From Octopus sinensis (lineage: Eukaryota), in assembly GCF_006345805.1 (NCBI RefSeq), contig NC_043007.1:37944001-38008000 (forward strand): a stretch of 64,000 bases of DNA, read 5' to 3'. The number at the start of each line of letters is the position of its first letter. Position 1 is the stretch's first letter. Made by a program: the position numbers and the translations under genes. Shown in pieces: positions 25,656 through 56,777 of this stretch. Under the pieces are notes generated by a model, which had not been told where the DNA came from, did not search any database, and worked only from the letters and a program-made list of their open reading frames with translations.

Positions 25656-25701
25656 GTGCACACACACACACACATGTGCACACACACACACACACATATA
25701 T

Positions 25702-26522
25702 ATAGTGTAATAAATAAAATATATGCATACATACAAACATATATGTACGTACCGACATCTACATGTATATATACATGCATATATAAATATATATACGTAC
25801 AGGACACCACAAGAAGACGTAAAAATCAACAGAAACGAAAACGGAAAAGCCATTTTGTTACAAAAGAAGGACAGAGACGTGGAACAAGACGAAAACGAAA
25901 TGGGAAAAACAATTATGTACAGCAGAAAAACGAAGTACAGGACATGCTGCACAAGGAAAAATCCCCTTCATCAGCTGTCGCTAGCAGACATAGCGTGTTT
26001 CGAAGGCAAGACAGAACACGTCTGGTCATGCTAGGCCTTCCTACGAGAGAATTAAAATAAAATACCCTCATAGAGGGGTAAAACGAGCAATTGTGCAGTT
26101 CTTTGTTACGTCCCTTTTTGTGTTACATTTTTTTGCTCGTTTTACCCCTCTACGAGGTTATCTTATTTTAATTCTCTCATAGGAAGGCCTAGCATGACCA
26201 AACGTGTTCTGTCTTGCCTTCGAAACACGCTATGTCTGCTAGCGACAGCTGATGAAGGGGATTTTTCCTTGTGCAGCATGTCCTGTACTTCGTTTTTCTG
26301 CTGTACATAATTGTTTTTCCCGTTTTCGTTTTCGTCTTGTTCCACGTCTCTGTCCTTCTGTTGTAACAAAATGGCTTTTCCGTTTTCGTTTCTGTTGATT
26401 TTTACGTCTTCTTGTGGTGTCCTGTACGTATATATATTTATATATGCATGTATATATACATGTAGATGTCGGTACGTACATATATGTTTGTATGTATGCA
26501 TATATTTTATTTATTACACTAT
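25702..26522. repeat. Near-perfect ~390-bp inverted repeat with a ~42-nt spacer
   Basis: 25702-26090 versus 26133-26522. The mirror ORFs in the track (25723+ and 26501-) confirm near identity. Confidence 0.95.
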
Positions 26523-27904: not shown

Positions 27905-27936
<32 letters not shown>

Positions 27937-27940
<4 letters not shown>

Positions 27941-28356
27941 AAAGATAAATGCGATACAATAAAATTAATTATAATCGCCGGTGTACCAGTACACGCCATA
28001 TATTATACATATATCATTACATTCAAGGCGAAGAGTGTACTAGATACACAATAGCTGGATAAATTTAGTGAGATGAGAATTAAAAACTTTTACAAACTTA
28101 ACTTTTCTTATACTGCAGTTTCGCCAAATTCAGTAATAAAAATAGTATTTATTTACTCAGGCTGGCTCTTCAGTAAGATTCCTGTTAATGATGGAAAGAC
28201 CATACCAATAGATCCATGTGCGTCTATCGAAATGCTCTTTCTAAACTATTCAAAACACTGCGCAGACTCCGAACAAACCCGACAAAATAGGGGATTGTGG
28301 TATATCGTCTAACGGTCAGAAATTTATCGAGAGAATATGTAAACAAAGATAAACAA

Positions 28357-28360
<4 letters not shown>
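27937..28360 (-). mobile_element. Short hammerhead-bearing element inserted in (TA)n (Penelope-like terminal repeat or retrozyme-like)
   Basis: Flanked by (TA)n on both sides, AAACAAAGATA repeated at both ends, contains the HHR at 28106-28178. Confidence 0.65.
28106..28178 (-). ncRNA. Type I hammerhead ribozyme
   Basis: TCTTA-CTGAAGA-GCCA..TGGC-GAAA-CTGCAG-TA-TAAGA. Complete core, G10.1-C11.1 pair, palindromic stem III, GUA cleavage triplet. Confidence 0.85.
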
Positions 28361-28388
<28 letters not shown>

Positions 28389-28390
<2 letters not shown>

Positions 28391-28692
28391 TAGAAAAAAA
28401 ACACCTTTTATCAATTCAAAATGAACAATTAAATTACACCATCTAGAAAATTACATATAATAGAAATATTAAAAATAAAATAATAATATACCAATGATTA
28501 AATAAATGCAAAATAATAATAAAAACATATATTTGGTTTGTGATTGGCCAAGGGCTATATTATTATTTTGCATTTACTTAATCACTGGTATATTATTGTT
28601 ATTTTAATTTTAATATTTCTATTATATGTAATTTTCTAGATGGTGTAATTTAATTGTTCATTTTGAATTGATGAAAGGTGTTTTTTTCTAAT
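28389..28692. repeat. ~130-bp AT-rich inverted repeat between (TA)n tracts
   Basis: 28389-28520 versus 28559-28692. Confidence 0.9.
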
Positions 28693-37810: not shown

Positions 37811-38111
37811 AATATAATCCTTCCTACTATAGGCACAGCCCTGAAATTTGTAGGGAGGAGACTGGTCAGTTTCACTGACCCTAGTATTTGACTGGTACAT
37901 AATTTATCAATCCCAAAAGGATGAAAGGCAAAGTCAACCTCAGTGGTTTTAGTTGATCAAAATCAACCCCATGACTTATTTTTTAAACCTAGTACTTATT
38001 CTACCAGTCTCTTCTGCTGAACTATTAAGTTACGGGAATGTAAACACACCAACACTGGTTGTCAAGCAGTGATGGGGGTAGGGGACAAACACAGACACAC
38101 ACACATATATA

Positions 38112-40627: not shown

Positions 40628-41239
40628 GGATCTTTACCTTTTGACCTACAGATTTTAAAAATAATTTTTTTAACTAAAGACTTTCAAACTTCGGACACTG
40701 GTAGAAGATGTCATATAAAATATCTTTCACTCTTAGCATTTTTGAGAAAAAACTAATATTTACGAAGTTATTTCACGTTAAAGTTCTCGTATTTCGGTAA
40801 TTTCAACCAATCAATGACGTGTATTCAGCTAAATAAAATTACTGCTGTTGTTTGTCAACAACAACTATCGGCGGTGTATATTTCGTTTGTCACTGTTATT
40901 TATGACAACCCTAACCCTAAAACCCTAACTTTAAAACCAGTACAAACGCACGAACGATGTCATAAATAACAGCGACAAACGAAAAATACACCACCGATAG
41001 TTGTTGCTGACAAAAAACGACAGTAATTATATTCAGCTGAATACACGTCATTGATTGGTTGAAATTACCGAAATACGAGAACTTTAACGTGAATAACTTC
41101 CTAAATATAAGCTTTTCTCAATATCGCTAAGAGTAAAAAGATGCTTTATATGATGACATTCTACCAGTGCCCGAAGTTTGAAAGTGTTTAGTTACAAAAA
41201 AATCATTTTTTAAATCTGTAGGTCAAAAGGTAAAGATCC
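40628..41239. mobile_element. Foldback MITE with ~280-bp TIRs and a CCCTAA-repeat centre
   Basis: GGATCTTTACC...GGTAAAGATCC ends, 8-bp TSD tttctttc/tttctttt. Second copy at 56120-56777. Confidence 0.9.
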
Positions 41240-49031: not shown

Positions 49032-51382
49032 GGGAATGTGTGACTATGATGTTCATGCTATTTCACTAAAAAATTCAGTTTTGTCAACGACTTCTAAGTG
49101 AAGGCAGCCAAGTGAAAACAATTCCAATAGATGAGAGGTATGTAGGTATGTGAGAGAAAGACAGGCGGAAGAAAATTATAATGCGGACTCTGGAGTGAAG
49201 GAAAATTCGGATTTATAGAATATTCACAAAGAATGAACAGTGAAGAAAGAAGAAAAAAATAAATAAACAACAGAAAATGGGTAACACTTCAACTTTTGCA
49301 AACTTTTCCATACTGAACATAACGTAAGTAAATGCTGATATAGAAAATTGATCGCGGCAGGATTTGAACACAGAATGAAAAGACGGGAGAAATACCGCAA
49401 AGCGAATTTTCGACGCTCTACCAATTCTGCCAGCTTCTGTGTGTGTTTGTGTGTATGTAAGCACACATTGTGGTTACTAAAATAGTTTAATCACAATTTC
49501 AAGTTTTACAAAGCAAGTGTAGTCTTTCTCCTTGATGTAAGAATCTGTAAATGTATTTACTAATGATTAAACATGTCTCAACCAAATGATTCCTTTTATT
49601 ATAAGCGCAACGCCTGAAATTTTAGGAGAGGGGGGCTAGTCGATTACACCAACTCCAGTGCTCAGCTGGTATTTTTTTCCATCGACCCCAACAGGAAAAA
49701 TTGTCCTCGGTGGAATTTGAACTCAGAACATAAAGACGGGCGAAACGCTGCTAAACATTTTGTCGGCCGTAATAAGTAACGATTCTACCGAATATTCAAC
49801 GAGGGAGCATTTACGGGTCGCACGCCTGGCTAAAAATGGCAGCCAAATCTTCCAACTCATATCCTACATTCTTTAAAAAAGTGTGGGAGACACAATTCCA
49901 GTAGAGATTTGGCAATTCAGTAACTCTCACTTTTTTTACTAAATATTTTTTTGTCATTCGTTAGTGTACTTCACTCTGGGCATTTGCTTGTGTTCCGTAT
50001 TAAAAAGAAATACTGATATAACTGAATTTGTTGTAAGTCTGTGTCGTTTTAACCACAGGTCAACCCTGACAGCCTTTATCGTTGTTTTGTAAATCACTAC
50101 ATACATAGTGTCTTCCTTCTTTTTTTTTTCTCTCTGAGATGAAATGCTAAAGTATTAAGTGAAATTTGGCTGATATTTCTAGCAGGTCAAGCAAACACGA
50201 CGACGCTCCCTCGTTGTGGTTATCTGTGGTGTTGTTTAGCATCGAGTCGGCTATGACTGAATAATAGATCTATGATTAAAGGTATTCCAACCATGATCAC
50301 TGCGATATTTTTTAAGTATTATGTACTTTGGACAACACTATCCTGCTTTTGTTGTTTGTTTGTTTTTTTAGAAGGGGAGGGCGTAATTTGAGCTTGTTGT
50401 GGCTGCTATTTCTAGTAGGCTAGCCTACTATATAGAGACTCCCTTTAGGTAAGCCATAACTTTTTGAAAACAGAGTTTGATAAGTATACATTAATTAATG
50501 ACTATATAATAAATATACTTTTTCAAAACAAAACTAATATCAGCTTATGTCTCTTAAGAAGATTTACAAAATTGTTAACGTTTGACTATCTCTTAAGTTT
50601 TTGGGGTTTTTTTCGACATAACCAAAATATCTCTGACACGCGATTAAAAGTATTAATTTAAAAAAAAAATATTTTTAATAGATTATATTTTCAACATGGG
50701 ACTTCGAGGGACAGCTACTTCAAATCTACGCCCTAAAATGTATCTGAACGCGTGAGTTTTAATCGATGATCTTAATGAGTTTTATTTATTATTTTAATAG
50801 ACATACTGGTTTCGTTTTGTAGCACTTGTTGTTTACTAACTCTAAACTTCACGAAAGTTAATATTGTTTATTTGAATGGCCTTTAAGTTACTGACGCCAA
50901 ACCTGCATGGTATTTACTTACACTTGATTTTAGTTATGATGAAAGAAAAAAAAAAAAGCTTATACATTATTCAAAGAAAAGGCGATTCATCTTGATAAAA
51001 GTTTTCGTCACAGGATAAACTTTATAGAAAAGAGGAAATATACATGTGGTCGATTAAATCGACCGCAACCAACTATGATTCCTGACATAGCGGTACACTA
51101 CACGTTTTGCGGGGAGGTACATTATCGATTAAATGAATTCCGACACTTCACTTGTGCTTCTTTCATCGAAACCGGAAGGATGAAAGGCAAAGTCGACCTC
51201 GACGACATTTGAACCCATATGTAAAAAAGCTGCCAAACTGAATAAAAACCGCAGGGTATATAGCTAATCCCATTGCTCTGTACATCCATATCAAGTAACA
51301 GCATTTCAAACACAACCACTACCGGCATAAAACATACAAAATATAAGTGGAAAAAGAAAACAGCGTTCACTGTATCACTCAC

Positions 51383-51502
51383 CTCTATCCAACGTTGTGT
51401 TTCGTGTAATGCCATCTCAGTAAAAAATTCCATTTCTTCCTCAGACCTGTACTTAAGATCCCAATGTGTATCTTCCCCCGGGTCACTTTGTTCATCCGCC
51501 AT
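51383..51502 (-). CDS. First coding exon (40 codons, phase 0) of a calponin-homology-domain protein, likely LMO7/LIMCH1-like
   Basis: Kozak-like AAAA-ATG-G. MADEQSDPGEDTHWDLKYRSEEEMEFFTEMALHETQRWIE ends exactly at GAG|GTGAGT. ALHETQRWIE resembles the first CH helix AFxEAQ(K/R)W(I/V)E, recalled from memory. No downstream exon was recognised in the window. Confidence 0.7.
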
Positions 51503-56119: not shown

Positions 56120-56777
56120 GGATCTTTACCGACAGATTTAAAAAATAATTTTTTGTAACTAATCACTTTGAAACTTCGGACACTAGTAGAATGTGTCATT
56201 TAAAATATCTTTTACTCTGAGCGTTTTTGAGAAAAGCTTATATTTACGAAGTTATTTCGCGTTAAAGTTGTCGTATTTCGGTAATTTCAACCAATCAATG
56301 ACGTGTATTCAGCTGAATAAAATTACTGCTGTTGTTTGTCAACAAGAACTTCCGGCGGTGTATATTTCATTTGTCACTGTTATTTATGACAACCCTAACC
56401 CTAAAACCCAAATCCTAAAACCCTAACCCTAAAACCCTAACCCTAAAACCCTAACCCTTAAACCTTAAAGCTAAAACCAGTACAAACGCACGAACGATGT
56501 CATAAATAACAGCGGTAAACGAAAACTACACCGCCGATAATTGTTGTTGACAAACAATGGTAGTAATTTTATTCAGCTGAATACACGTCATTGATTGGTT
56601 GAAATTACCGAAATACGACAACTTTAATGTGAAATAACTTCGTAAATACAAGATTTTCTCAAAAACGCTAAGAGTAAAAGATGTTTTATATGACACATTC
56701 TACCAGTATCCGAAGTTTGAAAGTGTTTAGTTACAAAAAATTATTTCTTAAATATGTCGGTCAAAAGGTAAAGATCC
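56120..56777. mobile_element. Foldback MITE with a CCCTAA-repeat centre, inserted in a mariner-like remnant
   Basis: Perfect 8-bp TSD CACAAGTC, long TIRs, central (AAAACCCTAACCCT)n. Confidence 0.9.

Follow-up and report, generated by a model that had tools for sequence, protein, structure and literature searches.

A young solo copy of a TA-dispersed 404-bp hammerhead repeat in an octopus intron, probably a non-LTR retrozyme that a Penelope-type enzyme copies from circular RNA

The hammerhead motif in the first intron of a LIMCH1/LMO7-like gene of Octopus sinensis belongs to a young solo copy of a 404-bp repeat that is dispersed at TA microsatellites, and we consider it likely, with a probability of roughly 0.8, that this repeat is a non-LTR retrozyme whose circular RNA is copied by a Penelope-type enzyme. 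Positions given without a locus name are those of the window, the whole stretch of 64,000 nucleotides that was analysed; the repeat and its sister elsewhere in the genome are called families A and B.

Reading the minus strand from 28178 to 28106 confirms a complete, canonical type I hammerhead that is more than a chance match. The CUGANGA, GAAA, and UH boxes follow one another in order, the G10.1-C11.1 pair is intact, and there are three helices, with stem I open-ended and a 2-bp stem III under a small palindromic loop, as in the type I motifs described in PMC4209133. The 5′ strand of stem I, UCUUA (28174-28178, placed by sequence reading and by the alignment of families A and B), precedes the catalytic box CUGAAGA (28167-28173), in which N7 differs between copies (A, U, C, or G). 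Stem II, GCCAG/UUGGC, occupies 28123-28166, where it has an internal loop and is extended by a long A/U hairpin; the GAAA box and the palindromic stem III, ACUGCAGU, fill 28112-28122; and the 3′ strands of stem I, UAAGA and GUUAA, are separated by an AAA bulge (28098-28110). Beyond the internal loop of stem I, which lies 5 bp from the core, an outer helix pairs UUAAC (28188-28184) with GUUAA (28102-28098) at pair probabilities of 0.65-0.85, in a register that is not the same in family B. An earlier note on this DNA had written the core as GCCA (28166-28163), 36 nt, UGGC (28126-28123), GAAA (28122-28119), CUGCAG, U28112, A28111, and UAAGA (28110-28106); these letters stand, every core nucleotide is canonical, and the cut it expected 3′ of A28111 agrees with the site that hammerhead numbering predicts at the GUA triplet (28110-28111). 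Its stem III is palindromic as claimed, but over 8 nt rather than the 6 nt of CUGCAG once A15.1 and U16.1 are counted in, and stem II can be extended to 5 bp, running on into the long hairpin, so that it ends in an internal loop and hairpin instead of a plain terminal loop. Nor is the motif a minimal hammerhead, the kind whose dimeric fold the note had invoked: with a stem III of 2 bp and a tetraloop it is canonical type I.

A hammerhead descriptor matched the window twice, at 28106-28178 and, weakly and without a palindrome, at 37910, and matched none of 10 block-shuffled windows. An exact search of the genome with the 17-nt core gave 425 matches and with its reversed control 0, and across 14 of 14 aligned copies the boxes are invariant except at N7. 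Rfam gave no match at gathering scores and no hammerhead family at E<=10, and the long stem II insert is a likely cause. The isolated 85-mer is only modestly more stable than shuffled sequences (z -1.46).

What the earlier note had taken for a host island of ~420 bp is one unit of a mobile repeat rather than host DNA, as genome matches and arrays make clear. The full 404-bp non-coding unit runs on the minus strand from 28340 to 27937, where it stops at its fixed 3′ end, ...AUCUUUGUUU; it has 34% GC, and its longest ATG frames span 59 aa in sense and 79 aa in antisense. The head of the unit, ACAUAU (28340-28335), resembles the (AT)n target. An (AT)14.5 microsatellite, the insertion target and putative primer, adjoins the 3′ end (27909-27937), and a second one of equal length adjoins the 5′ end (28359-28387); the matching flanks would be compatible with a duplicated tract, and non-LTR retrozymes, by their definition, have target-site duplications of more than 4 bp when these are present. 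Between the unit and the second tract, at 28341-28360, lie 13 nt of the next unit and then a slip that repeats AAACAAAGAT (plus strand), so that the whole insertion amounts to a complete unit with 13 further nt and a slip of 10 nt. Short 5′ duplications of this kind also occur at L169, L186, L131, and L139. The sequence AAACAAAGATA is indeed present at both ends, as had been reported, because the insertion wraps round into the start of the next unit and then slips by 10 nt. As a target-site duplication it was considered and rejected, given the constant unit start at all loci checked. The copy is 0-1 substitutions away from the commonest units of the family, and by its sequence it is a single, very young insertion. 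It carries one hammerhead and is a solo monomer, lacking at this locus the two hammerheads of a non-LTR retrozyme, so it cannot release a circle. The predicted fold of a circular 404-nt monomer is no more stable than those of shuffled sequences (z -0.43).

The window contains other repeats. The right flank at 28400-28490 belongs to a very abundant repeat, with a summed contig depth of up to ~2800. At 25701-26521 there is a TA-flanked fold-back with arms 94% alike, in which CUGAUGA is followed by a hairpin and GAAA is missing in place; it appears to be a degenerate insertion with two arms, from a different family. Telomere-like interstitial (AACCCT)n tracts occur at 40907-40938 and 56391-56478.

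In the genome as a whole, family A gave at least 172 unit matches (40 scored of 777 candidates), full units matching at 94-100% and many of them head to tail every ~404 bp; the longest array among the candidates scored has ~11 units. Tandem hammerheads are thus present elsewhere, for example at L013, L018, and L025 and in many further arrays. All 30 independent loci, which were retrieved by whole-unit or core searches without use of the junction pattern, start at unit position 1-2, and 27 of them pass a strict test for TA flanks, the other three having degenerate TA-rich ones. Exact junctions between (TA)n and the 3′ end number 162. Among the first 30 of these, none of which has an inverted second arm, 24 insertions are closed and measure 29-1118 nt, and the other 6 are longer than 1517 nt; most 5′ ends adjoin TA again. 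Ends of this kind, one fixed and one ragged, are the hallmark of target-primed reverse transcription. Head-to-tail arrays of homogeneous units would also be produced if an ordinary satellite had spread at the DNA level by unequal crossover or DNA circles and carried a hammerhead by chance, an explanation strongly disfavoured by a fixed end at all 30 loci combined with ragged ends on the other side, by the many sub-unit insertions of 29-192 nt, by the dispersal of copies over most large contigs, and by the inverted twin arms of family B.

For reverse transcription of an RNA circle we suggest the following course. Unit arrays would be transcribed; neighbouring hammerheads would cut the transcript, likely best as a double hammerhead formed through the palindromic stem III; a host ligase would circularise the 404-nt monomer; and the GIY-YIG endonuclease of a Penelope element would nick (TA)n. 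RNA across the head-to-tail junction of two units reads UUUGUUU|ACAUAU, and the nicked 3′ end could anneal there, by 5 of 6 bases, to the ACAUAU of the unit head. A cDNA primed in this way on a circle would begin at AAACAAAG, and the reverse transcriptase would copy round the circle until it fell off, leaving from 0.07 to about 11 units; at the window locus it would have made one turn plus 13 nt. In 2 of the 30 loci the element's own base is kept at the junction (ATGT).

The position of the cut site bears on the template. It corresponds to unit position 174, and 17 of the 30 insertions extend past it while 13 end before it; none of the 24 closed 5′ ends falls on it, the nearest being 159 and 184, and the L008 array has an end 2 nt away. 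With read-through this frequent and no closed end at the cut site, a cut linear monomer, on which copying primed at the fixed site would end there, is ruled out as the usual template. Rolling copying of a circle would explain the read-through and the markers that units inside one array have in common, among them A90G, whose four occurrences in the genome are all four units of a single array. An uncut multimer would explain the read-through as well, and later local duplication the array-private marker. Two other markers are not private: the ACUGCGGU stem III has 14 matches at 6 loci and CUGAGGA has 5 matches at 2. The 6 loci of the ACUGCGGU sub-lineage (on C2, C3, C5, C6, C7, and C19 of G000) all lie on one strand, probably by chance.

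Could the same element do without a circle? Its template might be an uncut multimeric transcript, or the reverse transcriptase might jump between linear monomers, with the hammerhead slow or dispensable. The read-through in 17 of 30 insertions fits this equally, a nearest-neighbour model gives the pairs of stem III in the monomer a probability below 0.01, and most of the Xenopus retrozyme dimers assayed in the portion of the account considered here (10.64898/2026.07.22.740005) failed to cut. We nevertheless think it unlikely. Families A and B have the same hammerhead core, although they differ by ~17% plus gaps elsewhere in the unit; the variants fixed in arrays fall at N7, in loops, or where they yield G-U pairs, so that cutting appears to be selected; and the array in which every unit carries A90G has no source array in the assembly. 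Contigs from four sequencing runs, which are not on record as RNA, cover the unit at a depth of about 4-42, and two of them (425 and 434 nt) wrap round it, as is expected from tandem DNA and a circle alike. The stretch is present in 19 run rows from 6 studies and three organisms, the four runs included, 14 of these rows being only guessed to be RNA.

We suspect that cutting, where it occurs, is favoured by pairing between units. In the monomer stem III would form 2 bp capped by a UGCA tetraloop; in a dimer it would form 8 bp. Among the descriptor matches (14 in about 414 kb scanned, which included loci chosen for Penelope content), there are 7 distinct 8-nt stem III sequences, 6 of them perfect palindromes with six different tetraloops, even though palindromy was not required. 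In each of the six the two central loop bases, whose pairing a monomer does not require, are complementary, an outcome expected 1 time in 4096 at equal base frequencies if the six are independent. In constrained folding, with a model that leaves out Mg2+ and tertiary contacts, two natural tandems are more stable as a double hammerhead than as two monomer folds, by 13.2 and 12.9 kcal/mol; the gain is 9.0 kcal/mol in a tandem of the ACUGCGGU variant, an imperfect palindrome that is fully paired in the dimer with two G-U pairs. On this evidence the stem III palindrome looks selected for dimer cutting, a mode known for metazoan type I motifs according to the sections of PMC4209133 that treat them. 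The suggestion that the palindrome serves a dimer thus holds for this class of hammerhead, by 6 of 7 sequences and by the part of PMC4209133 drawn on here, but not at the window locus, where one hammerhead stands alone and a dimer cannot form in cis in the host pre-mRNA. In the experiments of PMC7229834 cited here, retrozyme clones with a single hammerhead cut at ~0.8/min (coral) and ~0.1/min (mussel), and an axolotl motif with 2 bp and a tetraloop reached 22% cleavage within an hour by itself and did better as a dimer. This argues against a strict need for dimers, and stem III may not be too short for a stable monomer, as the earlier note had held it to be. For Xenopus, the account at 10.64898/2026.07.22.740005 lists 8 of 9 predicted retrozyme dimers as not cutting in vitro. 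The alignment of 14 copies of families A and B pairs in 91.7% of cells against at most 50% for slid controls, and 4 of 20 pairs change on both sides between the families, two in stem II and two in its extension; since a tree of two families offers few such events and there is hardly any variation in stems I and III, the covariation supports stem II only. Further hammerhead families with different palindromic tetraloops were seen at L114:8128, L115:2350 and 8761, L117:543, and L119:8020 and 8415, most of them with long stem II extensions.

Family B has units of ~426 bp (for example L057:1304-1729), is 83% identical to family A over ungapped columns, and is represented by 76 exact matches to an 18-nt motif and by loci L131-L160. 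It retains the hammerhead core, with stem II changed on both sides relative to family A and G10.1 replaced by A in 7 of 10 aligned rows, which leaves A10.1 opposite C11.1. Family B uses the junction of family A and also a second site, UACUU|AUAUAU, about 85 nt apart from it. Twelve of 20 family B loci are two-armed fold-backs whose inverted arm comes mostly from the other priming site, as expected if both strands of a palindromic target prime; an inverted second arm is described for Penelope-like insertions in the material of PMC8557442 available to us. Family A has AUAUAU at the place of the second site, yet none of its 30 loci starts there, and target mimicry alone therefore does not choose the site. 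One TA tract, at L030:250-1080, contains a family A array placed back to back with a fold-back of family B.

A candidate for the enzyme is present in the same genome. The search for GIY-YIG domains gave 150 scored matches of 5029 candidates, several in frames of 760-880 aa, and in one young family an ORF of 781 aa is intact and encodes reverse transcriptase and GIY-YIG domains. Its protein contains the linker CGRPNCGIC (CX4CxxC) and two cysteines in the GIY-YIG core, and by the motifs set out for these clades in PMC8557442, the one basis of this assignment, it would be a Neptune-type rather than a Hydra element; the Hydra and Naiad clades are described, in the material at hand, as targeting (TA)n as well. 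The family was seen at L112:2136-6950 (G000:C1, from 207472001) and at L113-L116 and L120-L125. Its unit of 4805 bp has a 479-aa upstream ORF overlapping the 781-aa RT-GIY-YIG ORF and, near the 3′ end, a U3-A8 minimal hammerhead with an ACAUGU stem III. It is inserted in (TA)n, and in the matched copies the tail is followed 16 times by (AT)n and 7 times by the element's own head, ATATATACC. The shared TA target and target-like end design would make it a plausible partner of the 404-bp unit, although no sequence common to it and family A or B was detectable.

These common features could also be read as descent, the unit being the pseudo-LTR (pLTR) of an autonomous Penelope-like element and the window copy a 5′-truncated piece of it. 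Type I hammerheads do lie in Penelope terminal repeats in the cases drawn from PMC4209133, and Xenopus retrozymes are called similar to pLTRs in the part of 10.64898/2026.07.22.740005 that compares them. We hold this to be very unlikely, since arrays reach ~11 pure units with TA closing both ends, no ORF is continuous with any family A or B copy examined, and Penelope fragments lie near only 3 places (L111, L126, and L080/L135), at the two inspected of which microsatellite and unrelated DNA separate them from the copies. No arrangement of reverse transcriptase and GIY-YIG between pseudo-LTRs was found among those copies, and neither 45 GIY-YIG loci nor 125 locus records contained a Penelope copy whose terminal repeat is homologous to family A or B. 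The unit may still descend from an old pLTR.

The retrozyme reading itself follows from the sequence-level definition given in the sections of PMC7229834 and 10.64898/2026.07.22.740005 that we could use, by which family A would be a non-LTR retrozyme: a type I hammerhead in tandem repeats of 150-450 bp (here 404 bp), non-coding, with GC below 50%, in pure head-to-tail units without an LTR-internal-LTR structure. The nearest likenesses are with the metazoan non-LTR retrozymes of coral, mussel, and axolotl (Cervera and de la Pena 2020, PMC7229834), which by that paper's account are likewise non-coding type I hammerhead units of 150-450 bp with GC below 50%, have no LTR structure, show in invertebrates a stem III of two pairs and a tetraloop, and share their genomes with Penelope elements. 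Mussel units in the same source measure 350-390 bp against the 404 bp of the octopus unit. Set beside what is described there, the octopus family differs by its new sequence, strict (TA)n targeting, one fixed 3′ end, and long stem II extension, and in that its cleavage, its circles, and the expression as linear and circular monomer RNA that belongs to the definition of non-LTR retrozymes are predictions; where that text calls its circles "highly self-paired," the predicted octopus circle is not unusually so (z -0.43). The vertebrate retrozymes (Li, Clavereau, Pollet 2026, 10.64898/2026.07.22.740005) are alike, in the features that could be compared, in occurring as monomers, dimers, and multimers beside Penelope elements, and their solo monomers are read there as offspring unable to transpose, the window copy being likewise solo. 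They are presented in the same text as Penelope derivatives, whereas no pLTR homology was found for the octopus unit; and its Discussion leans towards local tandem amplification. The octopus arrays, to judge from the fixed 3′ end and the partial units at the 5′ end, were instead made during insertion.

The hammerheads of Penelope elements (Cervera and de la Pena 2014, PMC4209133, as far as the comparison extends) share with ours the type I topology, a palindromic 15.2-16.2 pair and loop 3, the dimer model, and a proposed circular template giving insertions longer than the unit. The minimal Penelope hammerhead (min-HHR), as defined in the consulted part of that paper, lies in a pLTR and has a short stem I with an ill-defined loop 1, a stem III that is small or absent, and an additional base at the 5′ end of stem II. 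The octopus motif does not have this make-up: its stem I is extended, its stem III is a real helix of 2 bp under a tetraloop, G10.1 follows A9 directly, and, unattached to an ORF, it matches the class called "canonical" there. Neptune-type elements with an endonuclease (Craig et al. 2021, PMC8557442) are alike, in the passages compared, in their bias for TA microsatellites and in partial tandems, and their inverted 5′-truncated arms resemble family B; an element with the CX2-5CxxC linker is present in the octopus genome. The 404-bp unit differs from them in encoding nothing and in having no detectable sequence in common with the element in this genome. Neither "octopus" nor "cephalopod" occurs in the main text of PMC7229834, and we found no octopus or cephalopod report of such an element among the mostly open-access main texts searched. 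Within this scope the 404-bp repeat is a previously undescribed octopus member of a known retrozyme class.

The insertion lies in a gene, and the host context deserves separate comment. The exon at 51383-51502 (minus strand, GT donor at 51382) is the first coding exon of the LIMCH1/LMO7-like gene and matches octopus LIM and calponin homology proteins at 100% over their first 40 residues. No further exons of the gene occur within the 64-kb window; tblastn placed 15 pieces, covering residues 40-929, in order and on the same strand within 200 kb to its left. Exon 2 lies 29 kb left of the window and follows a clean AG, starting at G000:C11:37915020, so that intron 1 measures 80,362 nt. The hammerhead is sense in this intron; the splice donor is 23,272 nt away and the acceptor 57 kb. 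The earlier note had placed it in the pre-mRNA on condition that the intron reach so far, and the same-strand exon 2 beyond the window bears this out. Two unrelated hammerheads lie in other introns of the gene, L046:8661 (minus, sense) and L041:1733 (plus, antisense), the former in a short TA-flanked insert ~300 nt downstream of a splice donor.

Its sense orientation and its distance from both splice sites of intron 1 (23 kb and 57 kb), together with the unrelated sense hammerhead at L046, would suit a host role, in which cotranscriptional cutting of intron 1 tunes expression of the LIMCH1/LMO7-like gene. We regard this as highly improbable. The copy is 0-1 substitutions from the commonest units and one of at least 162 insertions, the gene holds the antisense hammerhead at L041 too, and a single hammerhead provides no dimer in cis. 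Reporters tolerated intronic hammerhead cuts in the material summarised in PMC2995048, which cites Dye 2006 and Fong 2009 for splicing that survives such a cut and which mentions, in the same connection, a failure of splicing only with the fast HDV ribozyme in the intron. About 44% of Xenopus retrozyme copies are reported to lie in introns, on the figures given in 10.64898/2026.07.22.740005. We think that the window copy would cut intron 1 at most once, probably slowly, and would likely affect splicing little, and the simplest reading is that a retrozyme insertion here is incidental and probably near-neutral for the host gene.

The circular template and the Penelope partner are stated as hypotheses in the Discussion of PMC7229834 and in the relevant portions of PMC4209133 and 10.64898/2026.07.22.740005, and a family in which fixed 3′ ends, read-through, a private marker, twin-primed arms, and a matching Penelope junction come together gives them a concrete, testable donor, target, and enzyme. 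More tentatively, and with somewhat less than even confidence, we speculate that the Penelope-type reverse transcriptase is primed in the manner of telomerase, the nicked (TA)n pairing inside the circle at a short target-like sequence before copying rolls on, and that the retrozyme parasitises the enzyme while sharing with its partner the target mimic only, which the autonomous element has at its own head. Search listings yielded no literature on internal target-like priming. If the proposal is right, a 404-nt circle and the intact 781-aa protein would be a minimal kit for Penelope retrotransposition in vitro. The window locus by itself is ordinary, one of at least 162 recent insertions; its interest is that the family is young enough for the mechanism to be read from the ends of its insertions, which would then be a genomic record of Penelope-type copying of hammerhead-made circles.
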